From Albidovulum sp. (GTDB lineage Bacteria > Pseudomonadota > Alphaproteobacteria > Rhodobacterales > Rhodobacteraceae): DNA of 64,000 nt. The DNA lies in NCBI GenBank assembly GCA_037046705.1, contig JBAOHB010000014.1, forward strand, positions 3,754 to 67,753. The letters are read 5' to 3'. A program made the translations under genes and the position numbers. Positions 13,170 to 57,431 of this stretch are shown piece after piece. The notes beneath the pieces are model-generated. The model made no database searches. It saw only the letters and a program-made list of their open reading frames with translations, and was not told the origin of the DNA. How positions within the stretch are numbered: the stretch's first letter is position 1; each line of letters opens with the position of its first letter.

Positions 13170-13239
13170 CGGTCAGACTCCTTGCTTTCGCCGTACGGGC
13201 GTCTTACGTTTATGCCATCGATCAAGTGAAGGTATGACC

Positions 13240-13452
13240 ATGGCCGAGACCGCGACCCTGTCCTCGAAGTTCCAGATCTCGATCCCCAAGGCGATCCGGG
13301 CGGCGCAGCACTGGGAAGCAGGGCTGACCTTTGCCTTCATCCCGAAAGGCACGGGCGTCCTGCTTGTGCCGGTGCCCAAGCGGGAGGTGCTGAAGGGGCT
13401 CGCGCGCGGCGCGTCCGCCACCGATTATCGCGACCGGACGGATCGGTTCTGA
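13240..13452 (+). CDS. vapB: AbrB/SpoVT-fold antitoxin
   Basis: MAETATLSSKFQISIPKAIRAAQHWEAGLTFAFIPKGTGVLLVPVP. GAAGG lies 8 nt upstream of the start. Its stop overlaps the vapC ATG (TGATG). Confidence 0.75.
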   Translation: MAETATLSSKFQISIPKAIRAAQHWEAGLTFAFIPKGTGVLLVPVPKREVLKGLARGASATDYRDRTDRF

Positions 13453-13832
13453 TGATCCTCGTCGATACGTCGGCCTGGATCGAATGGCTGATCGACTCGG
13501 CAACCGGCGCCAAGGTGGCCGAGCACCTGCCCGAACAGGCGGAGTGGATCGTGCCGACCATGGTCCAGCTCGATCTGGCGAAATGGCTGACCCGCGAGGT
13601 CGGCGAGGACAAGGCGGATCAGGTCATCGCTTTCACGCAGGTCTGCCACGTCGTCCCGCTCGACACCGAGATCGCGCTGGCGGCCGCGGAAGCCTGCCGC
13701 GAGCACAAGCTCGCCACCGCCGACGCGATCATCTTCGCAACCGCCCGCGCACAGGGCGCGACGCTCCTGACCTGCGACGCGCATTTCGAGGGGCTGCCCG
13801 GCGTCTCGCTGATCGAGAAGATCAAGGTCTGA
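13452..13832 (+). CDS. vapC: PIN-domain toxin
   Basis: MILVDTSAWIEWL begins the protein, with further acidic residues (EACREHKLATADAIIFATA, LLTCDAHF). Confidence 0.8.
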   Translation: MILVDTSAWIEWLIDSATGAKVAEHLPEQAEWIVPTMVQLDLAKWLTREVGEDKADQVIAFTQVCHVVPLDTEIALAAAEACREHKLATADAIIFATARAQGATLLTCDAHFEGLPGVSLIEKIKV

Positions 13833-15469: not shown

Positions 15470-15889
15470 TCAGGCCAGTTGGTCAGCCGTGGAATAGTGC
15501 AGCACCACCGGGATCACGGCGGCCTTCAGGCTCGCGGCGCCCTCAACCGGCAGATCGACCGGCCGCGGCGCTTCGGCCTCGACCCAGTCGCAGAGCCCGC
15601 CCAGCGTGCGGTCGGCAGCGAGCGCCGCGCCGATGCTGGCGGTCAACGTGTCGAAGGCGGCGTCACGGTCGGCACCCTGCACGACCGCCTCGATCTCGGC
15701 GCGGTGCTGGTAGTGGTAGGCCAGCGGCGAGAGGGTCACCTCGGGCGCGCCCGGTTCGCCGTCGCGCAGGATCAGCAGCCCCTCGGTCGGCACGCGCTCT
15801 GGCAGCACCTCGCCGCGGAGGGCGGTGGCGGGCAGCGCCGAAAGCCGCGCGTGCAGCGCGGTGAGGATGGTTTCGCGGGGGGTGGGCAT
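15470..15889 (-). CDS. Tail terminator/tail completion-like protein
   Basis: 139-aa ORF directly upstream of the tail tube gene. Assignment is based on position. Confidence 0.45.
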   Translation of the reverse strand: MPTPRETILTALHARLSALPATALRGEVLPERVPTEGLLILRDGEPGAPEVTLSPLAYHYQHRAEIEAVVQGADRDAAFDTLTASIGAALAADRTLGGLCDWVEAEAPRPVDLPVEGAASLKAAVIPVVLHYSTADQLA

Positions 15890-16015
15890 CTCTGACTGTT
15901 ACCTTGGACGCGCGGCAAGAGCGCCACGTTGTGACCATGTTCTTGAAAGGCATAAGTTCTTGACCACCATCATCTCTATCGCGACGATGGTGCCGAAGAT
16001 CGGCGGGAGACTCGG

Positions 16016-16765
16016 TTGTCCTACATCATTGCGCACGTAATTTTTGACAACACGGGAAACACTTACCCTGTGAACTGTCTCCGGACCGACTTGAAAATCG
16101 GAGATGAGGTTGTAGTCAAGATGAGCAACCGTCCACTTAAGTGGGCAAGGATTGCTGATATCAACTATCTCAATTGGAATTGCCAAAATACCATCGAGTG
16201 CTTGGCTTCGGAGGCCAAATTCACAAAAGATGGTATCGTCCTGCCGTCTGGAGACTCTCGAAGCGTTAACGGCTTGGCGCGCCCCTACGATTTAGCCGTT
16301 TTCCTATACAAGATTGGTTGGGTGCCTCGTCGCGCTGCCAGCAAGATGTACAGGATGGCCTATTCAGCGCAGAACAGAACTCAAACCTCTTTGATCCTCA
16401 TGCGGAAGAATGGCATTGATGTTCAGATCATAAACGACACCTCAATGGATAAGATGATTCCTAATTCAGCCTTGTCAATTAGCCGAAGCGATGGCCCGTT
16501 CATTGGACAGCCGTTCCACGGCAGCCTGTCCAACATTCTTGAGCGCACGGCTGATTTTGCGCAAGCGTTTCTGCGAAATGAAGAAAATCTCGAGGCCATG
16601 GTGGAGCCGTTACAAACCACCAAAATCTTGCCGAAGCCGCCGCCCAAAGTGCGAGAAGGCGAGGACGACCTCTATTCTGCCTTAGGGGGTGCAGGCGAAC
16701 CAATCTACCTTTCCGATGGTGTATGGCTGACCTCTGACGGTGGCGCACATGACTGGGGGAGATAG
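16016..16765 (+). CDS. Hypothetical protein, low-GC insert gene 1 (249 aa)
   Basis: TTG start with GGGAGA 5 nt upstream. No motif recognised. The C-terminus is DDLYSALGGAGEPIYLSDGVWLTSDGG. Confidence 0.6.
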   Translation: MSYIIAHVIFDNTGNTYPVNCLRTDLKIGDEVVVKMSNRPLKWARIADINYLNWNCQNTIECLASEAKFTKDGIVLPSGDSRSVNGLARPYDLAVFLYKIGWVPRRAASKMYRMAYSAQNRTQTSLILMRKNGIDVQIINDTSMDKMIPNSALSISRSDGPFIGQPFHGSLSNILERTADFAQAFLRNEENLEAMVEPLQTTKILPKPPPKVREGEDDLYSALGGAGEPIYLSDGVWLTSDGGAHDWGR

Positions 16766-16815
16766 CAACTCAATCTCGCACTTTTTCCGAAAAATGAATT
16801 GAAGGGATTGGCACT

Positions 16816-17274
16816 TTGGCTGACATCAGCAGGTCCGACAAACTCACTACTTCTGATCGTGACGAGCAAACCAAGATGGTTTCTGGTCAGTATGTCTTGC
16901 TGCGTATTCTCCATGAAGGAGACAGCTACACGCTCATGACCGCCACAGCTAAGGAAGATGACGATTTATATCAAGCATATCCCAACCTCGAGAAACTGGT
17001 TGCTGCTGCTGAGGAGGTGCTAGGTCGGGGCGAGCACCACACCGACAATTGGGGGCGGCCGTACCTTTTATGCCGGGGGTTTGATCACCCCAAGGCAATT
17101 CGGGGCCTGGCGAACCTGATTGCGACGAAACTCGGACTTCCTTCCGTCGACGAGCCTTGGGCCGACGAAGAAATGCGAGAGATTTACGACGAGTTTTCGG
17201 TCGGCGACGATGGTGAACCTGCCTACCTCTCGGACGGTGTTTACATAAGCAAGCGTGGCCGACTGTTTGAGTAG
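16816..17274 (+). CDS. Hypothetical protein, low-GC insert gene 2 (152 aa)
   Basis: TTG start; alternative ATG at 16876. The C-terminus is EIYDEFSVGDDGEPAYLSDGVYISKRG, the same motif as gene 1. Confidence 0.6.
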   Translation: MADISRSDKLTTSDRDEQTKMVSGQYVLLRILHEGDSYTLMTATAKEDDDLYQAYPNLEKLVAAAEEVLGRGEHHTDNWGRPYLLCRGFDHPKAIRGLANLIATKLGLPSVDEPWADEEMREIYDEFSVGDDGEPAYLSDGVYISKRGRLFE

Positions 17275-17358
17275 GATCGCTGCCGACCCACAGTTTCGAA
17301 TAGTGTGCGAGCCAGGATGCGTTTTTTCTGGCACGTCTCTGGCCGTGGTGATTTCCTT

Positions 17359-17991
17359 TCAATTCATCCGCCGCTCCACCCAGTTCGCCACGATCAGCCC
17401 CGGCACGCTGTCCAACGCCCGCTCCGCGTCCCGAGCGAGAGCCAGCCGCTTTGGCAGTTTCACCTGCGGCACGAGCAGGAAGATCGGCGCGGTGACCTTT
17501 CCGCGCCCGGTCTTCGATCGCGAAACCACCGCCTGGCCTTTCGTGTTCAGCCGCCCCTCGGCCACCAGCAGGCTCGGTCCGGTGCGGCGATAGACGAAAC
17601 GCAGGCGCAATCCGCGGCGTCGTTCCCATTCGCCGGGCGTGATCCGGCCGCCGCGCAGGGACTTGCCCGCAGCGGGCAGAGGGATCGCCAGCCAGAACCC
17701 GTCTTTCGACCGGATCAGCGGGCCGGTGTCGTGGGCGCCGATGATGACCGGGGCCTTGGACCAGACCAGCGCCGCGGCGTTCAGGCTCTCGCCGGCCTTC
17801 GGATAGGTCTGGCTACGGATCGAGTTCGCCAGCCGCCGGCCGAGCCCCGCGCCGGTGATCTGGCCGCGCCAGGCGGTCTTCAGCCCGGTCCCCGCCTCGC
17901 GCATCGCGGCAGTGACGGCCTTCTCGCCGGCCTTCACCTCGGCAGCCATGGCGGCGACGAGATCGGGTGTGATGTCGAGCTTCAGCTTCAT
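17359..17991 (-). CDS. Head-tail connector module protein (hypothetical)
   Basis: 210-aa ORF between the head-tail joining gene and the tail genes. Confidence 0.5.
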   Translation of the reverse strand: MKLKLDITPDLVAAMAAEVKAGEKAVTAAMREAGTGLKTAWRGQITGAGLGRRLANSIRSQTYPKAGESLNAAALVWSKAPVIIGAHDTGPLIRSKDGFWLAIPLPAAGKSLRGGRITPGEWERRRGLRLRFVYRRTGPSLLVAEGRLNTKGQAVVSRSKTGRGKVTAPIFLLVPQVKLPKRLALARDAERALDSVPGLIVANWVERRMN

Positions 17992-22384: not shown

Positions 22385-22609
22385 TCAGAGCCCCTTCACC
22401 GTCGTCACGCGGACCTGCCGGACGATCCGACGCCCCTCGGCCGCGGGGATCTCGCGATCCAGCGCCTCGACGGCCCGGTCGATCTCGGCGACGCTGCGGT
22501 AGTCCACGGTCTTGCCGTCATAGCTGACCCGCGCCACGCCCGAGGACCGCTGCGCGGTCAGCGCGTCGCGGCGGGCGCGGAGACTCTGCGGCCGTGGCCA
22601 TTGGGTCAC
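22385..22609 (-). CDS. gpW-like head-tail joining protein
   Basis: 74-aa ORF between terL and the portal gene. Contains RDALTAQRSSGVARVSYDGKTVDYRSVAEIDRAVEALDREI. Confidence 0.75.
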   Translation of the reverse strand: MTQWPRPQSLRARRDALTAQRSSGVARVSYDGKTVDYRSVAEIDRAVEALDREIPAAEGRRIVRQVRVTTVKGL

Positions 22610-24601
22610 CTCATGTAGCTCGAGCGCACCGTGCGTCGGCGCGGCGTCGTTCGGGTTGGGGCGGATGGCGCCGTCGCTGGACCGGGCTCAGACCCGTCCT
22701 GCTTCGCCACCCCGAGCTGCGCTTCCAGATCGGCCCACCGCGCCTCGGGCCAGCGATCCGCCCCGAGGATCCACGCGGCCGCGCGGGCATAGACGCGCGT
22801 ATCCAGCGCCTCGTTGCGTTCGCGCATCTTCTGCCATTCGAGCCGCGCGAAGCCACGCCTGGTCCGGACCGTCACCAGCTGCTCGGCGGTCAGCTGCTTC
22901 AGCCATTCACCGTCCGCCCAGTCTGGCAGGTGGATCGTCCCGGGCGGGCACAGTGCGCCCACCGCCTGTTCCTCCCGCGTCGGCCGGTCCTGCCGCAGGA
23001 AGCGATAGGTCTCGGCCTTGAAGGTCGAGGTGGCCACGGTCCAGAGCCGGGCGCCGCGCCGCAGCCGCTTGCCCGCGACGGTGGCGTCGACATAGGTCGG
23101 CCCGGTCACCGGGCTCGTCCGCGTGAACCCCTCGACGCCCTTCACCGGCGCGACTTGCGCGAACCCCACCTGGCGCGACCAGGCATAGACCGCGCTGGTC
23201 TCGTAGCCCGTGTCGATCGCGAGCCGGGCCATCGCCATCGGCTGACCCGAGGCATGCGTCCATGTCCGCCCGAGCAGCTCCGTCAGTTGCTGCCAGCAGG
23301 CCGGATCGCCGGGGCCGCCCTCGAGTACGAGGTGGTCGACGAGCCAGCTTTCCAGACCACGGCCCCAGGCCCAGACGTCTACCTCGATCCGGTCCTTCTG
23401 GACGTCGGCGCCCGCGGTCAGGAAGAGCCCGCGCTCGGGCACCGTTCCCGCCGGCCATGCCTCGCGCCGGTCCGCCAGCCGTTGCCAGTCGGGCAACTCG
23501 CCGGTTTCCATCCAGGTCTCGCCAAGTATGGTGTTCCGGAACGCCCGCATCGCCTCGTCGCTGCCCCGTGCCGCCTCATGCGCCCGCGCGATCCGCTGCC
23601 AGTCTGAGCCACCCCACTGGCGAGTAGAGCGCCGAGAGGTGGTAGCCGACCGTCGCCGGATCGGTGGTCGTTGCCGTTGCGCGCCATTCGCCGCGCTCGA
23701 GCATCCGCGTCTTGTGGTGCTCCGCGATGGGCCGCTCGCAGCCCTCGCAGTGATATTCCGCCGTCTCGGGGCGGCCTTTCTGCCAGCGCAGTCGGTCGAA
23801 CTTCAGCCACTGCATTGCGCCGCAATGCGGGCACGGCACGAAGAACCGCCGCTGGTCGCTGGCCTCGTACTCGCGCTCGATGCGCGACAGCCCCCGGATG
23901 GTGGGCGTCGAGACCAGCAGCACCTTGCGCCGGTGGGCGAAGGTCAGCGAGCGCGCCTCGGCCAGCGTGACCGGGTCGCCTTCCTCGTCGGCCGAGGCTG
24001 GATAAGCATCGACCTCGTCGAGGAAGATGTAGCGCGCCGGGGTCGATCGAAGCCCCACCGCCGAGTTCGCCCCGGTCATGATCAGGATGCCGCCCGCGAA
24101 CTCCTTCGACAGCATCGTGTTGCCCGCATCGCGGGATCGCGCCGGCTTCACCCTCTCCCGCAGATCGGGGCTCTCGTCGATCAGCGGGTCGATCCGCTGG
24201 CGCGAGTTGCGTTTCGCCAGCTCCACCGTCGGCTGGACCGCGAGCATCGGCCCCGGCGCCTGATGGATGATGAAGCCGATCCAGTTATTGCCGGCCTCGG
24301 TCGCACCGACCTGCGCGGCCTTCATGAACACGATCCGCTGCGTGGGATCGCCGGGCGAGAGCCGGTCCATGATCTCGCGCATGTAGGGCGTGCGCGCGGT
24401 CCGGTACTGCCCGGGTTCGGCCGACGCGCGCGAGGCGAGTTTCCGGTGGCGGTCGGCCCAACTCGAGACGGTCAGGTCCGGGTCGGGGCGCAGGCCCCGC
24501 GACCAGGCGCGGAGCAGCGCGGCGGCGCCGTCGAACCCGACGAGATCGTCAGGCAAGCCCGGGTCGGATCTCCGCGAGGCTGTCGAGCTGGGCGCGGACA
24601 T
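22606..24601 (-). CDS. Terminase large subunit (lambda gpA-like), frame break near 23590
   Basis: N-terminal ORF 23576..24601 and C-terminal ORF 22606..23550. The junction reads SPVGWL/(S)DWQRIARAHEAARGSDEAMRAFRNTILGETW if one base is removed. Confidence 0.8.
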
Positions 24602-25245: not shown

Positions 25246-25518
25246 ATGACCACGCGCCTGAACCCGATCACCACCCCGCGCCACGAACTCCGCGCCGACA
25301 AGGCCCGGCACAACAAGGAAGCTGCGCTCGCCGCCTTCATCGGAAAGAAGGCCGAGATCGACGAGATGCTCACGCGCCTGCAGGCGCTGAGTGAAGACCA
25401 CTTCAACGCCCACCCCGACGAAGTGAACTGGGGCCATGTCGGCACCCTCGAACACTACGCAAGCCTCCTGAAGCGCATCACCGACAGCGCCTTCGGCGAG
25501 GGCGAGCACGCCCGCTGA
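25246..25518 (+). CDS. Hypothetical protein (90 aa)
   Basis: Plus-strand ORF with plausible composition. No motif recognised. Confidence 0.5.
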   Translation: MTTRLNPITTPRHELRADKARHNKEAALAAFIGKKAEIDEMLTRLQALSEDHFNAHPDEVNWGHVGTLEHYASLLKRITDSAFGEGEHAR

Positions 25519-25613
25519 CCTCCGGCACTGCCGGAACTCCTGCCGCGCCCCCTGCGCGGCTCGGGGTCGTAGGAGGGTCGCGACGGTCGCGGCCCCGAAA
25601 CCGGAGACCCCAG

Positions 25614-26198
25614 ATGACCAAGCTTTCCGACACGCAAGCCGTGATCCTCAGCGCCGCCGCGCAGCGTGAGGACCGCAACGTCCTGCCGCTCCCCGGCTCC
25701 CTTCGCGGCGGCGCGGCTGCCAAGGTGGTCGGCGCGCTCCTTACCCGCGGGCTGATCGCCGAAACCACGACCGACAGCCAGACCAAGGCCGACGCCGCGC
25801 TCAACCGCATCTGGCGCAACGACGAGGACGGGCGGGCCATCCTCCTGCACATCACCGACGCAGGCCTCGCCGCCATCGGCATCGAGCCGGAGGACGGCGA
25901 CAGCGCGCCCACGGGCGCCGACGCGGCGCCGAGCGCAAAGCCCCCGCAGGACGCTCCCACAGAGGCCGTCCCCGCGCCTAAGGCGCACACGCCGCGCACG
26001 GGCACGAAGCAGGCCAAGCTGATAGAGATGCTCCGCGCCGAGGGCGGAGCGACCATCAACGAGATCGTCGCCGCCACGGGCTGGCAGCCGCACACGGTCC
26101 GCGGGGCATTCGCCGGCGCGCTGAAGAAGAAGCTCGGGCTCGAAGTGACCTCCGAAAAGGTTGAGGGCCGCGGGCGGGTCTACCGCTTGGAGGCCTGA
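25614..26198 (+). CDS. DUF3489 domain protein
   Basis: C-terminal TKQAKLIEMLRAEGGATINEIVAATGWQPHTVRGAFAGALKKKLGL. Confidence 0.7.
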   Translation: MTKLSDTQAVILSAAAQREDRNVLPLPGSLRGGAAAKVVGALLTRGLIAETTTDSQTKADAALNRIWRNDEDGRAILLHITDAGLAAIGIEPEDGDSAPTGADAAPSAKPPQDAPTEAVPAPKAHTPRTGTKQAKLIEMLRAEGGATINEIVAATGWQPHTVRGAFAGALKKKLGLEVTSEKVEGRGRVYRLEA

Positions 26199-26500
26199 TC
26201 TCGTCTGATCGCAGGACCGAAATCGCGCCGATAAGGCAGTCGACGACGAACATGGCCGCCGCTCGCATCGAGCGGCGGTCTTGTCGTTCTGACCCGGATC
26301 GCCTCAAAGAGCCGCCGCAAGGCGAAGGACCGCGCGATGCTCACCACCGTGAACACCGCCCCCATCTTGAGGTTCTGCGCCAGCGTCGTGTGCAGCCCGA
26401 AGACCGGGAAGAGCAGGATCTGCGTCACGACCGCGACGCCATAGCCCACCGCCACGTTGGCGACGGCCTCGACCAGCGACATGGCCCGGCTCTGCTTCAT
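26180..26500 (-). CDS. Small membrane protein; 3' end uncertain
   Basis: MKQSRAMSLVEAVANVAVGYGVAVVTQILLFPVFGLHTTLAQNLKMGAVFTVVSIARSFALRRLFE. The tail after residue ~80 looks non-protein-like. Confidence 0.5.
   Translation of the reverse strand: MKQSRAMSLVEAVANVAVGYGVAVVTQILLFPVFGLHTTLAQNLKMGAVFTVVSIARSFALRRLFEAIRVRTTRPPLDASGGHVRRRLPYRRDFGPAIRRDQASKR
26256..26290 (+). terminator. Possible intrinsic terminator hairpin
   Basis: Perfect 10-bp stem ccgccgctcg/cgagcggcgg (26256-26265 / 26269-26278) with a 3-nt loop, followed by the T-rich tcttgtcgttct. It lies 58 nt after the DUF3489 stop. Confidence 0.35.
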
Positions 26501-26509
26501 TGCGCCCCC

Positions 26510-27532
26510 TCATCCATCGGCCAGCAGTTCAGCTGCGAGAGTTCGGAGCGCATGCGCCGCGACCAGCGGGACCACTCCGTTGCCACAGAGCCGAAGCCGG
26601 TCCACCCGGTGGGCCAGCCCATCAGCGCCTCGACGAACAGCGGGTTCAAGGTTCGGCGCGGATCGGAGGTATCGCTCCCAGCCATCGGCGTCACCAGGAC
26701 CTGGCGGCCAAGCAGCCCGTTCACCGGCGTGTTCGCGAGGCTCGTCGCCCCGTCCTTGTGATCCCGCGCCGTCGGCGTCATCCACATTCGCGTCGCATCG
26801 CAGAGCGTCGTCCCGTCGTTGCGCGGGCGCGCCGTCTCGCTGCGATTGCTGGTCCGGTTCCGCGTCCCCTTGCTGTCGTCGGCCAGCGGCGTCGGCCAGA
26901 GGCGCATCATCTCCGTCCGGTTGCCTCCGCTCGAGCGCGTCCCCGAGCAGGCGCGCGGGGTCGGCCAGGTGGTCGCGCTCGCGGTGGGCGAGGATGAAGA
27001 GCCGTTCGCGCCGGTGGGGTGCGCCGACTTCCGCCGCCGTGAAGAGGCCCGCCGCAAGGCGGTAGCCCATGCCGACCAGCCCTCCGGCGACTTCGGGGAA
27101 GCCGAGGCGGAGATGATGGGCGACGTTCTCGAGGAAGACGAAGGGCGGCTCGACCTCTCCAATGATCCGAGCAACATGCGGCCAGAGGTGCCGCGGGTCG
27201 TCCGCACCCCGACGCTTTCCCGCGACGGAGAACGGCTGACACGGATAGCCCGCAGTGACGATGTCCACCGCGCCGCGCCACGGACGGCCGTCGAAGGTTG
27301 CAACGTCGTCCCAGACAGGCGCCCGATCCAGGGCCGTGTCTTCCATCCGCGCCACGAGGATGGCCGCGGCGTAGGCGTCCCGCTCGACATGACCCACAGT
27401 GCGATATCCGGGGAGTGCGAGGTGCAGCCCGAGGTCGAGCCCGCCGGCGCCGGAGCAGAGCGAGAGGCCGAACAGGCACACGTCGTCGGCTCCGGCAGGC
27501 AGGCCGGAGGAAGCTAGAGCCACGCCATCCAC
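26510..27532 (-). CDS. DNA cytosine-5 methyltransferase
   Basis: Motif I LCSGAGGLDLG, motif IV GYPCQPFS, ENV (FLENV), RRERLF, and C-terminal CGNGVVP. Confidence 0.85.
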   Translation of the reverse strand: MDGVALASSGLPAGADDVCLFGLSLCSGAGGLDLGLHLALPGYRTVGHVERDAYAAAILVARMEDTALDRAPVWDDVATFDGRPWRGAVDIVTAGYPCQPFSVAGKRRGADDPRHLWPHVARIIGEVEPPFVFLENVAHHLRLGFPEVAGGLVGMGYRLAAGLFTAAEVGAPHRRERLFILAHRERDHLADPARLLGDALERRQPDGDDAPLADAAGRRQQGDAEPDQQSQRDGAPAQRRDDALRCDANVDDADGAGSQGRGDEPREHAGERAAWPPGPGDADGWERYLRSAPNLEPAVRRGADGLAHRVDRLRLCGNGVVPLVAAHALRTLAAELLADG

Positions 27533-27536
27533 GTCG

Positions 27537-28976
27537 TCAGGCCGCGTGGGCCCCCTCGGCCGCGGCCGGGGTCTCGCCCAGCCGCTTGGCCTTCACCTCG
27601 GCGAAGGTCCGGCCGTCGCCATCGAGGATCGCGTCGCGGCCGGTCTCGGCCTGCCAGCGTTCGACGGCGACATCGATATAGGCGGGGCTGATCTCCATCG
27701 CGAAGACGCGGCGGCCGTTTGCCTCGCCCGCCATGATTTGTGAGCCGGAGCCCGAGAACGGCTCGTAGCAGAGCCCGCCGCGGGCGACGTGCTGGCGCAT
27801 CGGGATGCCGAAGGCGTCGAGCGGTTTCGGCGTCGGATGGTCCGGGCGCTCGTCCTTCGCGAAGGACGGCATTTCCCAGGTCGAAGGCAGCGTTTGCTCG
27901 GCCACCTTCGGCGGCCGGTTCGGGCGGCGCCAGCCCATGAAACAGGGCTCGTGCTTCCAGAGGTAATGCGAACGGGTGAGCACCCCGCGGTCCTTCACCC
28001 AGATGATCTGCTGGTGAACGAAGGCGCCCGCCTTCTCCCAGCAAGCCTCGAGCATCGCCTGGCGGCGGGAGGCGTGCCAGCAGTACCAGGCAGCGTCTTC
28101 GGCGATGGCCCCGGCGACCGCCGCCGCGATGAAGCCGTCGTAGAGTTCCGCGCCCTGGCTGCTGTCGTCCCAAGTGACGCCGTAGGACTGCGACCAGTCC
28201 TTGATCCGGGTCGGGTGGTTCGAGCCGTCGTAGTCGACGAGATACGGCGGGTCGGTCGCGAACAGCACGGCGCGCTCGCCGTTCATCAGCCGGCGGACGT
28301 CGTCGTGCGAGGTCGAGTTGCCGCAGAGCAGCCGGTGGTCGCCAAGGATCCAAAGATCGCCGGTGCGCGAGGCCGGGTTACGCGGCGGTTCGGGGATGGT
28401 CACCGAAGGCACCGAGCCCCCGGCGCCACCTTCCTCTTCACCGTCGTCTTCCGCGACGTAGGCCAGCAGCTTGTCCAGCTCGCCCTCCGAGAAGCCGACC
28501 AGCGACAGATCGTAGTCGTCCGCCAGCAGGTCCTGCAGCTCGGCCGAGAGAAGCGCCTCGTCCCAGCTGCCGAGTTCCGTGAGCTTGTTGTCCGCGATGC
28601 GATAGGCCCGGCACTGCGCCTCGGTCAGGTGGCCCAGCACGATTACCGGCGCCTCGGTCAGCCCGAGCTGCGTCGCGGCCAGCACCCGGCCATGGCCCGC
28701 GATCAGCTCCCCGTCCTCGGCGACGAGGCAGGGCACGGTCCAGCCGAACTCGGCCATGCTTGCGGCGATCTTTGCGACCTGGTCGGGCCCGTGCACCTTC
28801 GCGTTCTTCGCGTAGGGTTGGAGGCGCGCAAGCGGCCACATCTCGATCCGCTCGGGGGCGAAGGCGAGGTTCATGCAGGTTCCTGTCGATGATAGGTCGG
28901 CATCCGCCGGACTGGACTCCGGAGCGATGGGGTCCGCCGGCTTCCGGCTGGACTTCGGCATCCGCGGGGTGTCCAC
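27537..28976 (-). CDS. ParB-like nuclease domain fused to an N6/N4 DNA methyltransferase
   Basis: ParB-N block LQPYAKNAKVHGPDQVAKIAASMAEFGW..IAGHGR and the catalytic DPPY motif (LFATDPPYLVDYDG). Confidence 0.8.
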   Translation of the reverse strand: MDTPRMPKSSRKPADPIAPESSPADADLSSTGTCMNLAFAPERIEMWPLARLQPYAKNAKVHGPDQVAKIAASMAEFGWTVPCLVAEDGELIAGHGRVLAATQLGLTEAPVIVLGHLTEAQCRAYRIADNKLTELGSWDEALLSAELQDLLADDYDLSLVGFSEGELDKLLAYVAEDDGEEEGGAGGSVPSVTIPEPPRNPASRTGDLWILGDHRLLCGNSTSHDDVRRLMNGERAVLFATDPPYLVDYDGSNHPTRIKDWSQSYGVTWDDSSQGAELYDGFIAAAVAGAIAEDAAWYCWHASRRQAMLEACWEKAGAFVHQQIIWVKDRGVLTRSHYLWKHEPCFMGWRRPNRPPKVAEQTLPSTWEMPSFAKDERPDHPTPKPLDAFGIPMRQHVARGGLCYEPFSGSGSQIMAGEANGRRVFAMEISPAYIDVAVERWQAETGRDAILDGDGRTFAEVKAKRLGETPAAAEGAHAA

Positions 28977-29945: not shown

Positions 29946-30463
29946 CCCAGGCCCCCGTTCGTCTCGATCGCCCAGTGCAGAATGGCGATGGCGTCGGCCT
30001 CATTGTCGTCTGCGGGTGAGAACCCTCGTGCTCGCGCCGCGGCGATCATCGCCTCCTTGGGCGCGTTGCCCTTGCCGGTGGCGTGGCGCTTGATTGTGCC
30101 GACCGGAACACCCTCGTACGGAACGCCGCGCAGCTCGGCCCAAGAAGTCAGGGTTGCCATCAGCCCGCCGTAGATGTGGGCCGCGTCGGTGCCAGCGTGG
30201 CGGCGCACCTCCTCGAACCAGATCGCGGCGATGGGCCCGGACAGACGGTCGAGTTCGGTCAGCCAGTTGGTGAAACGGAGGTATCGCATGCCGCCGCCGT
30301 CGAAGCGTCCGGGACGAAAGCTGACCGTACCGCTGGTGATCAGTCCGTCATGGCTGCGAAGCGCCCAGCCGGTCGTGGTGCCGAGATCGAGGGCGAGGAT
30401 ACAGGACCGGGAGATCGCGCCCGTTTCGGGGCTCAGGTCCTGCGCGGGGATCGGTGTGTTCAT
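29942..30463 (-). CDS. RuvC-like Holliday junction resolvase
   Basis: ILALDLGTTTGWAL (first catalytic Asp) and C-terminal DDNEADAIAILHW. Confidence 0.7.
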   Translation of the reverse strand: MNTPIPAQDLSPETGAISRSCILALDLGTTTGWALRSHDGLITSGTVSFRPGRFDGGGMRYLRFTNWLTELDRLSGPIAAIWFEEVRRHAGTDAAHIYGGLMATLTSWAELRGVPYEGVPVGTIKRHATGKGNAPKEAMIAAARARGFSPADDNEADAIAILHWAIETNGGLG

Positions 30464-30592
30464 CGTGAAGGCTCACAAGCTGTGGGCCTTCGGCTTCGGT
30501 CACCGCAAGATTTAGCATCCGGCGGGTCGGCGCCAAAGCGAAAACGACCAGGGACGACGCGGCGGGCTAAGATCGACGCGCTGCCCGTCCCG

Positions 30593-30889
30593 GTCCCAAC
30601 CTCCGAGCGCGTGGTCCCAACCTTCGAGGGGGTTGGGACAAGCCTTTATTGTTTTACTCCAATGGCTTGAACGGATGCGGTCCCAACCTCGGTTTCCCCA
30701 ACGGGGGTCCTTCTCTTTTCGTATAGAAAAACATGTTCCCGACCTTTTCCGTTCTCCCACATGAATGTGTAGCAAAAGGTTGGGACCACAAGGCGAGGTT
30801 GGGGACACCGTTGTTTTTGAACGGCTTTTCGTGTCCCCAACCTCCTCGGGAGGTTGGGACAGGGTTGGGACTACTGGGGAGGTTGGGAC
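30593..30889. repeat. Iteron-like array: 10 copies of GGTTGGGAC / GTCCCAACC around an AT-rich core (putative phage origin or operator cluster)
   Basis: GTCCCAACC at 30593, 30614, 30680 and 30833 (the last with an extra C). GGTTGGGAC at 30631, 30778, 30797 (extra G), 30852, 30863 and 30881. 30797-30808 and 30831-30842 form a 12-bp inverted repeat. Confidence 0.7.
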
Positions 30890-31162
30890 AGACGATCCGG
30901 CAGCCATGTAATCCACGGTGCCTTGAAGCCGGAAGCAAGCCGGTGTTCGACCAAGACGTCACTGGACTGAGTGCAGGTGTATCGGCGGACTGCTTGCTGC
31001 CGTGTCGACCTCGGCTGTCAGGGAGAAAGCCAAATCCGGTATGCGAACACATCGCCGCTTGTTACTATATCTGGGAGTGCGAAGAGGGTCTCTCCTCAAC
31101 GCGTTGTAGCCTTAGGGTTTGGAAATGCGAGTATTGGCGTGCCAATCGAAGAAGTTGCCGTG

Positions 31163-34100
31163 ATGATCGACGAGGTGCCCTCACCGTCGGAGTTCATGCG
31201 AATGCGGCGTCCAGAGCAGTTCTCGGATAGCTCTGAACGGTCGCTTTATCGCTTGTCGCGCGACGTGCTGGAACAACGACTGGAGACGCTCACAGCACGA
31301 AACGACATGCAGGCGTTTGAGCGGTTCGCGAGGGCTCTCTGCGAGCGCTTTGTCTGTCCGTTCCTGAAGCCGGCAACGGGTCCGGAAGGTGGGGGAGATG
31401 GCAAGGTCGATACTGAGAGCATCAGGACCGCCGAGGAGGTCGTCGAGCGCCACTTCGAGGGCCGCGCTGACCGCGGCAACGAGAGGTGGGGTTTTGCTTT
31501 CAGTACCAAGAGGGATTGGAAGGCAAAGGCACGCGCTGATGTGGCTGGGATGGTCGGAACTCGGCGAGGCTACAAGACGGCATTCTTCGTCACATCTCGT
31601 TACGCGCGATCAAAAGATCGCTCTGAGTGCAAGATGCGCTGGCGGCCGAGCATGGCATCTTGGTGGAAATTCTCGACCGGAATTGGATTGTAGACAACGT
31701 CATTGAAAAGGATGCCCGCGATCTCGCCTATATCCATCTCGGCATTGGCGAAAAGGTCGAGGAATCGAAGATTGGGCCGCGCGACAGGGAGCGCCGGGAA
31801 AGGTTGGCGTCGTTGGATCGTGACCTCGAAGCTCCCGACCGGGCAGCGGAGGCGCCGCTAGCCGTAGTGAAATGCGCGCTGGACGCCGCAATCCTGTCCC
31901 GAGAACTTGAGCGACCACGATATGAGACTGACGGCCGCTTCGAGCGAGCCATACGGCTCGCCGACCGCCATGGAGCGGACCGACACAGCCTCGCGGCGCG
32001 CTACGAGAAGCTTTGGACGGCACTGCACTGGTTCGACGATATTGGGGCCGTCCGCGATGGCTACCGCGACATCGAGGAGCGCGCCCTCGCTCTCAATCAC
32101 GCATCCGCAATCGAGAGGGCCACGAACCTGCTTTTCGGGCTGTCAGGACCGTTTGCCCAAGCCACCTCAGACGGTGTGGATGTCGACGTACAAGCGGCAT
32201 GGGAACGTCTGGAGGCCAGTCTTGAGTCGATGTGGAATGACGAGACTTCTGCCCAACAACAGGCTGACCGCCCGGACGCTTCTGTTGATGCGTGGCATTA
32301 TGGTGGACCTGGCAGCCAGCGACCTGAGTTCGATCGAGACACGACTATCGCAGATCATCGAAATCATCGACGCCGCCCGCGGATTGATGGAGTATGACTT
32401 TGATCGCTTGGAGCAGCTCGTGGAAATGCTCGGCGAGACGCTCGGAGGAAACGCAACGTTGTCCCGCGTCGTCGACCATCTTGGCGACGCGCTTCAACAA
32501 CGGCGCGGTGAGACGGCACGTGGTATGCTTTTCTTGCGCCGCGCTCGGCAACTTGACATCGAACGGGATCGGTTCGAGGTTATTCGCCGCCTTGGCACCG
32601 TTGTCGAATGCCTGACAAAGGAAGAGCACCTCGATGAGTTGGTGGAAGCGGCATACCTGCTCGCTGTAGCCTATCGCGGGGCCGGGCTACCATGGGCGGC
32701 TAGAGCCACCGCTTTGTTCGGTCTATCAGCAATCGTGATACAAGCCGAAAAGTCGTCGGTGCCCCCGAGTGAGATACTTCCCACATTCCTCCTGTTGGGA
32801 TGGATCGATCTGGAACTTGGTCTTGTCGCGGAGTTACTGGACGTCGTCGCAGTCTCACGCGGCATCCTTGGATCGTTGCCCTTCGACGAAGATTCGAAGA
32901 ATAGAGCACGCGAAACACTTCAGACTTTCGACTTCTCACTCGGAGGCAAATTCCTGAATGCGCGGGAGGCGGATCTGTCAGCCTTCCAGAGCTTGCCCGA
33001 TGTCCTCATGGCAATCGAGTTACCGGCAGCATCCACTTGCCTCTTATATGCTCTTGGCCACGAAGACGAAGCTCTCGGCCCGGCGATCGAAGATCGCGCA
33101 ACAAATCTTGAAATGCTTGCTCAGCTTTCGGCGCAACCCGCTTGCGCCCTGCCTCGCCATGGCCTGATCGGAGAATTCGACGGTCCATTCGCCTTCACAA
33201 CGGATGTCCTCGGGCTGCAGCTGACGATCTCCGGCGACAAGGGAGCGAGATGCGCCTTGGTTGCGCAACTCCTGATCTCAATGGCTGAAACGCTTCTGGC
33301 GACCGGTTTCGAAGCCGGCTTCGCCGCACATCGCGAGCGCTACGAGGTGCGTGTAGTGTTGAGCGATGTGATTGCGGCTCCTTTCCCGAAGTTTGACGAG
33401 ACCGCGTCGCAGGACCTGCTCGAATGGCCAGCCGATTGGAATCCGGCTGAGCCAAGGACAGCATCGGATGCGCGAGATGCATTGCTGACGACAGTCGCGT
33501 ACATCATTGGTCAGACCTGCATCTTGAAGGACGGGACCGAGTCGCTTGAGACGCTCCTCGACAGCGATACGGCAATCAGCCGGATCATGACTTCGCTCGG
33601 ATTGGGTGTCAGCATGAGCCGGGTATTGAAGGAGACGCCGGTCACGCCTGCCAGCATCGCGGATCATTTTCGTGCTGATCCCCCACGGCCTTTTCCTTTT
33701 CGAGCGGTTCTTCCATTGCCCGAAGTTTCCGCGCCAGAAGGACCGACGTCAGGTGACACGACGGATCAGCCATTCGGGGCAATACGCAGCCATCGAGAAC
33801 TGAAGACCCGATCTCTCATTGACGTCCCGCTCTGGAACGCCGCGAAATGGAGGGGTGTCGCGGTGATGAAGCTGTCACTTGTCGGTCTGCCCATTCTGGC
33901 TTTGATGTTCGAGAATTCCGATGCCGGTTATCGCATCTTCGAAGCCTGGCGGGAGAGGCTGGGGTCGGAAGATGAAGCCGGTGAACTCCTGGTGACTATC
34001 GTGACGGACCTGCCGGGTCGTCCGAGATCGCACTACGCCGTCATTCTGACGACCAACTTGGAAGCGCGGCCGGTGATCGGCGAGATGTTTTTCGTGGTCG

Positions 34101-34330
34101 CAAGATCACTGATCATGGAACCGAGTTCGGGAGAGAACCTGCAGCTATTCCTCCGTGATTGGGGGCGCAACGGAGCTTTCCTTATCGGCGGTGCTTCAAT
34201 GCCCCAAGATGTCAGGCCACCTGAACTGCGGAAGGAAACCACGATCCTCAAGAGGCACCTGCGGGTGGCGCGGCACGAGGATCTGGAAGAGTACGAAGTC
34301 GGTTTTCTTGGCGGCTCGAAGGGAGTCTAG
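31163..34330 (+). CDS. Large (~1,055 aa if merged) protein: Mrr-like PD-(D/E)xK nuclease N-terminus plus helical/unknown C-terminal region. Read as 3 overlapping ORFs in the track.
   Basis: ORFs 30971..31693, 31627..32397 and 31907..34330 follow each other in three frames. Protein-like sequence hands over at ~31625 and ~32265. The N-terminal motif is FERFARALCERFVCPFLKPATGPEGGGDGKVD .. WGFAFSTK. Confidence 0.55.
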
Positions 34331-34353
34331 ATCGTCCCATGGTTTAGGGTCAG

Positions 34354-36950
34354 TCAAGTCCGATCCTGCCCCCTCCGATACCGCCACTCCCGCGGCGCCT
34401 CACGGCCGCCCTCGTCGCGGCGTCGGTACCGCTCCCAGCCATTTGCCTTGAGGTAGGCCGAGACGCGCATCTGGTCGCCTCGGGTCCAACGGGCGGGTTC
34501 GAGCCCGATGGCCTCCTCGAGGATCTCGCCGACCGACACATCTCTCAGCGGCTCCGGGCGCGGCACGCTCTCGGTGCGGGAGTTGTCGTAGTCGGGGAAG
34601 CCATCGGAGACGGTGCGGATCTCGTGCGTCAGCCAGTGTTCGATCAGGTCGTCCCAGGCGTCCGACTGGTAGCGGCGGTCCTGTTCCTCGCGGGCTTCCT
34701 CCAGCAGCGCCGGGTCGTCGATCCACCAGATTGCGCCGGCGCGGAAGCGGTGGACGGCCTCCGCCCAGAGCTGGTCCCGGTCACGCGCGAGCGCAGCGAT
34801 GTCTATGGCGCCGCAGCGCAACGGCCAGAAACGACGATTGCCGGTCTCGTCGCGAAGGTAGGTGTCGGGGTTCACGGTGCCGGCAAACACGCACTGTCGG
34901 GGCACCTCGACGGTGTAGCGGCCATAGGGCGGACGGAAGCGGTCGGTGGTGCGGGTCAGGAAGGCCTTGATGCGCGAGACTTCGGCGCGACCAATGGCAT
35001 CGAGTTCGGCGATCTCCACGATCCAGACGCCCTGCATGTGCAGCGCGGCGTCCTTCGACCCGAGCTCGGGCAGTTCGTCGGTGAACCATTCCTCACCGGC
35101 CAGCACCTTGATCGCCGTGGACTTGCGCGCGCCCTGCGGCCCCTCGAGGATCAGCATGTGGTCGGCCTTCACGCCGGGCCGGTAGATGCGGGCGATGGCC
35201 GAGATCAGCCAGAGCGCGCCGATGGTGTGGTTGAACGCCGTGGGCTCGGCGCCGAGACAGGCGCTCGTCCACGTCTCGATCCGGGGCGTGCCGTCCCATT
35301 TCAGGGTGTCGAGCCAGTCGCGGACGGGATGGATGCGCACTCGCGGGCGACGGCGCCGACAGCGCGGCTCACGACCACCGGGGCGACGTTGATGCCGCGG
35401 AGTTGCAGCCATTCGGCGGTGCGGATGTCGTCGGCGTCCTCCCAGGGGCGCGGGAGGGGGGCGATTCCGGCGTCCCACGGCAGCGGCTGGCGCACCACGA
35501 TCTCCTGCCCGAACTCATCGAAGGCGAGCACGCCGGCAAAGGCCGGATCGGAGGTCAGTGCGACGATGACGTTAGCTTCGTTTCGCTCGGGCGCACCCGC
35601 GAGGTCGAGCCGCAGGCGCCTGAACCAGGAAGGCTTCGGGATCGGCGCGTTTGGATCGCCGGTGGCGTTTACGCGGCGGCGGAGCTCGGCCAGCTGCTGC
35701 GTCAGGACCGACATGCCGATCCCGGTCGCGGACTTGATCCGCGCGATGACCTGCCGTTCGGGCAGCGGGTCGAGCCTTGCCAACGCGATGCGCCCGAGCA
35801 GCGTGGACAGGGCTTCGAACTCGGGCGGATTGGTCAGCGCCTCGGCAGCGGCGATCAGGGTCGCGGGATCGTCTGCGGAGGCGACGACGGGTGTGACCGT
35901 TTCAGGGTCGACCGTATCTCCGGCCTGCGGCTCGGCTGCGGTATCTGTCTCGTGCGCGTAATCCTCGGCGCGAGCGCCGCGCTGCAGATCGTCGTTGAAG
36001 TCGTCGCCGTGGAGCGGCGCGACGATCTCGTTCGGGATGTCGGCCCTGTTCAAACGGTCCGAGAGCGTTGCGGCCGCCTGGCGGCCGGCGTCTCCGGCAT
36101 CGGCGTAGATGGTGACGCGCCGGGCACCCTCGGGCCACTGGAACCGCGCCAGACCGTCGGCCGACAGCGCCGCCCAGACCGACATGCCGAAGAGCGCGTG
36201 CGCGGCGAGCGCCGTCTCGATCCCCTCGGCGATGCCGATTTGACCATCCTCCGGCATCGGTAACAGCCGGACCACGGCATCCTTCACGCTGCCCAGCATC
36301 TTCTTGCCCGGAGGCGCCTTGGCGCTGCCGTCGTCGAGCAGGAAGGTGCGATGGATACCCGGCGCGCGCTCCCCGCCCGGCAGCCGCAGGATCGCGATGA
36401 GGCCGGGCCAGCCACGGCAGCTGTCGAAGTCCGGCAAGTCGGGATGGAACAACAAGTCGGACGATCCGGGATCCGACAGCCCGCGCGCGCGCAGATAGGT
36501 CTCGCCCAGCGTGCCCGCGAGTGGAACGGCCCCGTCGACGAGACGTGCGATCTCGGAAGAATGATCCGGGCGCGCGCGCAAGGGCGCCGCCGGCGCAGGC
36601 CGCGGCGCTGGATGGACCATACCCGCGAGCCGCGCCGCCTCGTCGAAGAGCGCGCCATCGCAAAGGCCGGTCGCCTGGGCGATCAGGTCGATGGGACCGG
36701 CCCGCTCGCCGGTGGCGTAGTCGAAGCCCCAGCCGGCATAGGGCCCGTCGAGATGGATGGTGCAGGAGCCCTCCTTCCGTGGCGGGCGCCCGGAGAGGTC
36801 GGCGCAGCGCAAGGAACGACGGTCGCGCGCCAGCCGGGCCTCCGGGAAGAGCCCCGGCAGCCAGTCGGCGGCGGTGCAGGCCAGCCGCTCCTTCACCGCC
36901 GCGAGATCGTGCCGGGTCTTCGGGACCGCGATGTCGTTGAGGTCGATCAT
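34354..36950 (-). CDS. Toprim-domain primase fused to a VirE-family P-loop NTPase, frame break near 35340
   Basis: ORF 35301..37073 (start MIDLNDIAV at 36950; GIAEGIETALAA..IYADAGDAG Toprim). It continues in ORF 34354..35478 (RIHPVRDWLDTLKWDG, Walker A GPQGARKST). Confidence 0.8.
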
Positions 36951-57200: not shown

Positions 57201-57431
57201 GGATGCGACGATGCCGCATCGATCGCACAACAGATCATCGACATCATCAAATCGCACCTGATCGTCGACATTTGGTCGAACGAAGTGGCCCAGAACAATC
57301 TACGCAACGCCATAGACGACTACTTCTTCGACGTTCTCCGCGACAAGCAAGGCATAGACCTCCCCGTTGAGGTGCTCGACGATCTCGAACTGAAGATCAT
57401 GGACCTCGCCCGGGCCCGGTTCGCGGCATGA
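54205..57431 (+). CDS. hsdR: Type I R-M restriction/helicase subunit, frame break near 54418
   Basis: The N-terminus MDRGHGFDTREKHQSQVPALQLL switches frame before FDLEDAHEAMRRL. Has CDIVAFVNGIPIMVIENKR (nuclease), GSGKSLTM (Walker A) and VLVDESHR (DEAH). Confidence 0.9.

Follow-up and report, generated by a model that had tools for sequence, protein, structure and literature searches.

A two-gene cassette in a hypervariable prophage slot encodes proteins that share a widespread, unannotated acidic C-terminal module

We analyzed a two-gene cassette in the head-tail region of a prophage of Albidovulum sp. (Rhodobacteraceae), within a stretch of 64,000 nucleotides of contig JBAOHB010000014.1 that we call the window. 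The cassette (15890-17358) consists of two plus-strand open reading frames (ORFs), here named A and B, and fills exactly the gap between a tail-terminator gene and a DUF6441 gene. A preliminary description of this DNA had placed both ORFs at these positions, between a tail-terminator-like and a connector gene, and the flanks do match phrog_4204 and DUF6441/phrog_6367, respectively. The composition of the cassette is foreign to the phage, with a GC content of 0.519 vs. 0.674 for the window, making it the lowest-GC 1469-bp stretch in the whole 64 kb (z = -3.7); the earlier hand counts of 25 G+C in 16141-16200 and 42 in 15661-15720 proved exact on recounting. GC content at third codon positions (GC3) is 0.59 in both A and B and 0.88-0.91 in the flanking phage genes. 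Similarity between the two proteins is confined to their last ~37 residues (pairwise BLASTP E = 3e-5), and the peptide that had been reported as common to both C-termini is encoded at 16694-16729 (GEPIYLSDGVWL) and 17212-17247 (GEPAYLSDGVYI).

Both genes are firmly supported as real and selected. In a collection of 5.8 billion proteins, searched down to about 30% identity, A has 62 homologs and B has 25, and the ratio of nonsynonymous to synonymous substitution (dN/dS), taken against homologs from other contexts at which dS is saturated, is about 0.05 for A and about 0.10 for B. Homology and dN/dS together indicate purifying selection and dispel the reservation, raised at the outset, that the frames might not be conserved. 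The TTG starts of both genes are supported by N-termini conserved across homologs: MSYIIAHV in A, and invariant M1, I4, S7 and K9 in B. Public gene calls disagree for an identical cassette, giving B either 152 amino acids (aa) from TTG 16816 or 132 aa from ATG 16876; we favor the former, since residues 1-10 are conserved across the family. A GGGAG ribosome-binding site precedes A at 16006-16010, and a TTGACC at 15960-15965, kept in an alignment with the sister phage L007, is a candidate promoter element. A consensus scan of both strands of the cassette found neither a sigma-70 promoter nor an intrinsic terminator, and A and B are likely to be co-transcribed, because the spacer between them lacks a terminator. 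The positions of these features are collected in Table 1.

Table 1. Features of the cassette, its flanking genes and a further gene elsewhere in the window.
Feature	Position	Strand	Evidence or remark
Tail-terminator gene	15470..15889	-	phrog_4204, E 1.3e-43; left conserved flank of the cargo slot
Upstream non-coding part of the cassette	15890..16015	+	Sequence
Gene A, 249 aa, TTG start	16016..16765	+	Homologs, dN/dS, AlphaFold2
C-terminal module of A, aa 213-249, REGEDDLYSALGGAGEPIYLSDGVWLTSDGGAHDWGR	16652..16762	+	Net charge about -6
A-B spacer, 50 bp	16766..16815	+	GAAGGGA ribosome-binding site at 16801-16807
Gene B, 152 aa, TTG start	16816..17274	+	Homologs, invariant columns, dN/dS, AlphaFold2
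C-terminal module of B, aa 117-152, DEEMREIYDEFSVGDDGEPAYLSDGVYISKRGRLFE	17164..17271	+	Net charge about -7
Downstream non-coding end of the cassette	17275..17358	+	Homology among relatives resumes at 17354-17380
DUF6441 (phrog_6367) neck/connector-region gene	17359..17991	-	Pfam E 2e-47, PHROG E 4e-80; right conserved flank
ParB_N + DNA-methyltransferase fusion gene	27537-28976 (in 25445-28976)	-	PDB hits 2zie and 1vz0

Confident structure models were obtained for both proteins. The AlphaFold2 (AF2) model of A has a predicted local distance difference test score (pLDDT) of 85.9 and comprises an N1 beta-barrel (about residues 1-80), a basic N2 alpha/beta domain (about residues 88-200, isoelectric point [pI] 9.7), a low-confidence linker (residues 201-216, with pLDDT below 55 at residues 211-220) and an acidic C-terminal module. 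B (pLDDT 80.6) is acidic (pI 4.65), with an N-terminal alpha/beta domain that bears an invariant MTATAxED motif and leads into its own copy of the module. The predicted secondary structure of the module is a helix at residues 219-222 and strands at 230-233, 236-238 and 244-246 in A, and a helix at 116-127 with strands at 136-139 and 142-144 in B.

No match to a characterized family or fold was obtained for either protein. Scans against Pfam, PHROGs and NCBIfam returned no family match, as did PADLOC (PADLOC-DB v2) even at E<=10, in keeping with the earlier statement that no domain could be recognized in either protein. The Pfam and NCBIfam scans likewise showed no nuclease, nucleoside triphosphatase (NTPase), transmembrane or toxin domain, and anti-restriction and anti-defense families (ArdA, ArdB/KlcA, Ocr, Acr and others) were matched neither in Pfam, NCBIfam and PHROGs nor by fold in Foldseek. 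Foldseek comparisons of A and B with the PDB, and of A with BFVD, gave nothing below E 0.04; weak resemblances to the sliding clamp, PUR, type III secretion chaperones and LAGLIDADG folds were rejected, with template-modeling (TM) scores below 0.33. Profile searches of PDB sequences with A, B and the module yielded chance-level local matches only, tblastn found neither A nor B in GenBank phages, and cluster look-ups gave no name for any family member checked.

The two proteins have their tail in common. Its GEPxYLSDGV peptide is the core of a widespread and previously unannotated C-terminal module of about 35 residues, which runs from [DE]-[LI]-Y-x-x-[LF] (the predicted helix) through G-x-G-E-P to x-Y-L-S-D-G-V-[WY]-[LI] (the hairpin) and x3-G. 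Many members end in D-[WR]-G-R. In short form, the module reads as a helix ELYxxL, a hairpin YLSDGVW and then DGxxxDxGR. The module is strongly acidic (pI about 4.1), and its motif is conserved in 49 A homologs and 26 B homologs, which upholds the earlier notice of a shared terminal peptide; it is best read as a common interaction element. An exhaustive search of 1.84 billion cluster representatives with a profile of the module found it in 309 clusters at E<=1e-3 and in 57 at E<=1e-10. Among the 150 best-scoring hits, the match reaches the final residues of the protein in about 148. The parts ahead of the module fall into 19 clusters, namely the B family (52 representatives), the A family (37) and 17 small ones, and in a further 64 "mini-proteins" fewer than 50 residues precede it, some of these being the module alone at 31-47 aa. 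The motif strings were not found in the searchable literature.

The N-terminal parts are themselves interchangeable. Within the A family, the N1 barrel and the N2 domain are each found in other proteins joined to the module without their counterpart, N2 sometimes following a Zn-ribbon. The module is also fused to two HRDC/helix-hairpin-helix repeats (P0209), to a phosphoribosyltransferase fragment (P0261) and to a DUF3268 zinc finger (P0253). In P0187, encoded on a plasmid-like contig with KfrA and a resolvase, it follows the OB-fold and linker of a single-stranded DNA-binding protein (SSB) and replaces the usual acidic tip. Module-bearing genes also occur side by side: A and B in at least seven contexts, a gene for a 482-aa protein with a B-like gene on a Rhizobium plasmid, and an A-like gene with one for a 188-aa protein in a Burkholderiaceae metagenome-assembled genome. 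A kinship of the 482-aa protein with the ParB_N-like neighbors was considered and rejected on comparison. Within the 64-kb window, no module ORF was found besides A and B.

A split arrangement was seen in the nin-like early region of a lambdoid-like prophage (L103, 6612-7120; also L104-L106), in which a 129-aa ORF with a B-type N-domain is followed by a separate 39-aa module ORF. The two overlap in ATGTAATGA (a TAATG stop-start), and the arrangement is kept in at least 15 contigs. The overlap and its conservation suggest translational coupling rather than decay, and the separation of N-domain and module suggests that the module may be able to work in trans. A tblastn search of GenBank phages with the 39-aa module gave no match, although the low-complexity filter may hide one, and the split-gene region had no megablast match among E. 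coli genomes. A and B belong to the two largest branches of an undescribed superfamily that joins variable N-terminal domains, through a flexible linker, to a constant C-terminal mini-domain. That this superfamily is modular, restricted to mobile elements and defined by its constant acidic C-terminal mini-domain is firmly established. It unites more than 300 unannotated clusters from phages, plasmids and defense islands, each with a variable head and a constant acidic tail.

The site that holds the cassette is hypervariable. The window phage belongs to a family of temperate siphophages with a sister prophage in Jannaschia rubra. From 597 relatives of the DUF6441 gene in IMG/VR, we retrieved 80 loci with DUF6441 at 87-98% identity; all 70 that also keep the tail terminator carry a different insert between the two flanking genes. 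DNA homology to the window breaks at 15889 and resumes at 17354-17380, which are the two gene ends; the left break falls on 15889 itself in 38 loci and only a few bases away in most others. The inserts measure 490-3537 bp (median about 1 kb, median GC 0.56), their ORFs form 76 mutually unrelated clusters, and in 49 of 69 cases (71%) the longest insert ORF runs antisense to the structural genes. Since every such relative carries another insert and homology ends at the flanking genes, A and B are established as a moron in a hypervariable hot spot. The view of the preliminary description that a foreign cassette had entered the head-tail operon is thereby sustained, by its low GC and by the different inserts of related phages at the same site. 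The cassette is firmly shown to be acquired, selected and dispensable, a two-gene cargo in a swap-slot.

Some of the cargo carried by relatives is of the conflict type: HEPN_RiboL-PSP (three cases), a PvuRts1I-like/SRA methyl-directed restriction enzyme, HipA, NYN, SLFN/AlbA_2, a DrmC-like protein and the PADLOC candidates PDC-M09A and PDC-S31. Other inserts encode alpha/beta-hydrolases, sulfate and chromate transporters, LysR regulators and a transposase, so the slot holds a mix of conflict and conversion genes. The earlier suggestion of a moron for defense, exclusion or lysogenic conversion stands in part: it fits the defense-type cargo of relatives, and it gains nothing from A and B themselves, which have no PADLOC match and no effector-like domain. 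Among more distant relatives within the phage family, targeted scans found two further variants of the A+B cassette at this same site, with A 78-81% and B 72-80% identical. In another lineage, which includes the Jannaschia rubra prophage, A (80% identical) is followed in this slot by an unrelated 212-aa protein that is all-helical, lacks the motif and overlaps A by 4 bp (L007, 8747-9385; also L108, L109 and L142-L146). The gene for the 212-aa protein has a GC content of 0.45-0.49, below that of the A/B cassette, and its product has no Pfam or PADLOC match.

Phage morons and cargo hot spots are well known, examples being lambda bor and lom, the defense hot spots of P2 and P4, and the acr loci in the structural operon of Mu-like Pseudomonas phages. 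The A/B cassette resembles these in placing genes of foreign composition between conserved structural genes, in the swapping of unrelated cargo among relatives, in its antisense orientation and in being dispensable for the virion. It differs in that its cargo comes from unannotated families and in that the consensus scan revealed no autonomous promoter or terminator. To our knowledge, the DUF6441/tail-terminator slot of this phage family has not been described before, and its hypervariability is new information. It serves as a natural "cargo bay" with different accessory genes in every sampled relative and is a ready source of candidate defense, counter-defense and conversion genes for alphaproteobacterial phages.

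As for how the cargo arrived, flanking direct and inverted repeats were sought as insertion scars, and the sole notable one was a 14-nt inverted repeat around B (16794-16807/17354-17367). Its arms, ATGAATTGAAGGGA and TCCTTTCAATTCAT, are complementary at 13 of 14 positions, and the right arm overlaps the stop codon of the DUF6441 gene. By chance alone, the 2.1-kb region should contain about 0.35 such pairs; we rejected the repeat as an insertion scar and regard it as probably fortuitous.

Outside this slot, A and B are neither phage-specific nor an obligate pair. They occur together in the window and at loci L001, L012, L014, L110 and L134-136/145/147/148; A is found without B in the L007-like phages, at L003, L107, L111 and L112 and on Acinetobacter plasmids, and B without A at L002, L006, L132, L133 and L137-L141. 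The order A, B, ParB_N-like recurs in Loktanella, beside genes of a type IV secretion system (T4SS), and in Actibacterium, followed there by DUF7146-Toprim and YspA-SLOG genes, and on a metagenome contig the pair lies beside integrases and DUF3768. Without B, A lies near DUF3768 and a restriction-modification system in Mesorhizobium. In Roseovarius, with DUF429 and NucS_C genes as flanks, it immediately precedes the gene for a 524-aa PDC-M72B/M09A-like protein, and in Brevundimonas that for a UvrD/GajB-like helicase. A also stands without B on plasmids of Klebsiella and of Acinetobacter, the Acinetobacter copies lying among RelE/ParE modules. Without A, B follows an Azaca (ZacABC) defense system at a distance of 76 bp in Corallococcus, adjoins the TraA relaxase on plasmids of Agrobacterium and Rhizobium, and stands between relaxase and T4SS genes in Frigidibacter. 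Constant co-occurrence of the two genes is not supported, given these solitary copies and the exchange of partners. Close homologs (70-81% identical) span Rhodobacterales, Hyphomicrobiales and one myxobacterium, and such identity across groups so distant indicates recent horizontal spread.

B-like genes (31-37% identity) were also found in four viral contigs (L138-L141), two of which, L138 and L139, are syntenic with the window phage family. There they lie co-directionally downstream of a homolog of the window's ParB_N-methyltransferase fusion gene, immediately behind it in three contigs and, in the fourth, with one gene in between. In these contigs, the stretch from this homolog to the terminase genes is a second variable slot, ahead of the terminase, with B-family genes.

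What might the module do? Acidic C-terminal interaction tips are familiar from the DDDIPF tip of E. coli SSB, from T7 gp2.5 and from the A-domain of T4 gp32. The module is like them in being acidic, in having conserved aromatic residues, in lying at the very C-terminus after a flexible linker and in being portable, and P0187 is an SSB that bears it in place of the tip. On the strength of these features, we propose, with a probability of roughly 45%, that the module is a handle for docking or assembly, tethered to non-catalytic binding proteins that take part in mobile-element conflict or establishment. Such a handle would bring the variable heads of A and B to the same partner, which may be each other or a conserved DNA-transaction protein. 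A and B probably act by binding, as they have no catalytic domain and are small acidic products, and the cassette would then work by binding rather than catalysis in the establishment of a mobile element or in conflict, be it counter-defense or exclusion. If the tail is indeed such a handle, its partner would give a mechanism for all members of the superfamily and could reveal a hub that is targeted during mobile-element establishment.

A second group of likenesses concerns shape. The C-terminal aromatic-x-x-DG-x-aromatic hairpin recalls, as a pattern only, the T4 fibritin foldon, the YLGDG hairpin of NlpC/P60 proteins and intein block A, and it suggests a possible role of the module in self-assembly. 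These DG-turn hairpins differ from the module in that the profile search of PDB sequences gave only local matches of 9-14 residues to an intein and an NlpC/P60 protein (E 0.6). The same search returned no foldon match, and a foldon-like relationship was rejected for want of sequence support.

The contexts of A and B appear to place them in mobile-element conflict or establishment. Plasmid leading regions are rich in orphan methyltransferases, SSBs, toxin-antitoxin (TA) genes, anti-defense genes and uncharacterized families (Samuel et al. 2024, PMC11541004). The islands described there resemble our loci in that small proteins, non-enzymatic and of unknown family, are grouped on conjugative elements with ParB-like proteins, SSBs, orphan methyltransferases and TA genes, and in being shared with phages; the A and B homologs were compared by gene neighborhood rather than by position relative to the origin of transfer (oriT), and no anti-defense homology was found for them. 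We lean slightly toward establishment or counter-defense over defense or exclusion. The contexts on this side are the co-directional position after the orphan ParB-methyltransferase of the phage, the nin-like early region, the ParB, Toprim, SLOG and relaxase regions of conjugative elements, and the plasmid SSB fusion.

Several points weigh against the docking proposal. The docking partner is hypothetical. In size and degree of structure, the module goes far beyond known SSB-type tips, with about 35 residues predicted to form a helix and a three-stranded sheet vs. a peptide of 6-10 residues, and there is no sequence similarity between them. No homology to a characterized anti-defense, defense or DNA-binding family was detected with Pfam, PHROG, NCBIfam, PADLOC, Foldseek or PDB profiles. 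Only the basic N2 domain and weak, non-significant fold resemblances hint at nucleic-acid binding by A or B. Finally, the orientation bias of the slot, its defense-type cargo and the Azaca, PDC-M72B-like and GajB-like neighbors fit defense expressed in the lysogen equally well.

The most serious rival takes up this last point. A and B might be a defense or superinfection-exclusion pair expressed from the lysogen, a sensor and an effector coupled by their shared tail, as the preliminary description had ventured. The antisense bias of the slot (49/69) and the HEPN, mREase_II/IV, HipA, DrmC-like, PDC-M09A and PDC-S31 cargo of relatives would suit such a pair, as would the Azaca system 76 bp upstream of one B and the PDC-M72B/M09A-like protein and GajB-like helicases next to A. 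We nevertheless consider it doubtful. PADLOC matches neither protein even at E<=10, neither has a nuclease, NTPase, transmembrane or toxin domain, and the module is found on SSB and HRDC proteins as well. Moreover, each gene often occurs without the other, which together with the lack of an effector-like domain speaks against a paired sensor and effector, and family members are co-directional with their surroundings in early and pre-terminase phage regions and in conjugative-transfer regions.

The docking proposal can also be put more broadly, in a form that we offer tentatively and hold to be a good deal less probable than the proposal itself. The YLSDGVW module could be a hitherto unrecognized, portable docking domain that plugs diverse small DNA-binding or decoy domains into one conserved hub of the cell or the mobile element, for example a replication/repair or ParB-type protein, in phages, plasmids and integrative and conjugative elements across Proteobacteria and Myxococcota. 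The free mini-proteins would then be competitors or regulators. If true, this would define a new modular "adaptor" class of establishment and counter-defense proteins.

Two further readings are improbable. In the first, the module is not a handle but a signal for export or translocation, marking substrates of a conjugative T4SS or of virion packaging. Its place at the extreme C-terminus, the members near relaxase and T4SS genes, and the SSB member on a plasmid-like contig could be taken this way; it is, however, conserved to the same degree in prophage copies that have no T4SS close by (the window, L007, L103, L134-L148), exists as free mini-proteins of 31-47 aa, and is acidic, unlike the Arg-rich signals of VirB/D4 systems. 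The second, slightly weaker still, is a TA or addiction module, as two small, adjacent, co-oriented genes with homologs among RelE/ParE-HigA modules on Acinetobacter and Rhizobium plasmids might suggest. Neither gene matches a toxin or antitoxin family, both products are acidic and non-enzymatic, their pairing is not obligate, and they share a domain, which the partners of TA pairs do not. A virion structural or assembly role at the neck/tail junction, to which only the position between neck and tail-terminator genes points, is effectively refuted by the absence of A and B from 70 close relatives with the same flanks, their presence on plasmids and chromosomes without phage genes, and their opposite strand and foreign composition.

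Other parts of the window hold features of their own. A second antisense insert in the tail operon (13231-13832, plus strand) lies between the tape-measure gene and the tail-chaperone region and comprises an AbrB/SpoVT-like antitoxin candidate (~13231-13452) and, after it, a VapC with a PIN domain (13452-13832, Pfam E 3e-19). The insert is phage-like in composition (GC 0.66, GC3 0.90), in contrast to A and B, and therefore either old or native. The large terminase subunit (22606-24601, minus strand), of the lambda GpA type and 667 aa long in the sister prophage L007, is split into two frames near 23601-23606, with tblastn placing residues 1-334 in frame -1 and 336-642 in frame -2; this is either a frameshift, in which case the prophage is defective, or a sequence error. 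A 995-aa ORF at 54444-57431 (plus strand) is a relative of HsdR, a subunit of type I restriction enzymes (EcoR124 HsdR, E 2e-35). It sits in a long stretch of GC 0.56-0.65, in a lower-GC region at about 44-58 kb that is probably a separate defense or genomic island outside the prophage. The GC content also dips to 0.58-0.60 at 30000-34400, where an 807-aa plus-strand ORF (31907-34330), for which PDB sequences offer no relative, may likewise have been acquired, close to the end of the prophage.

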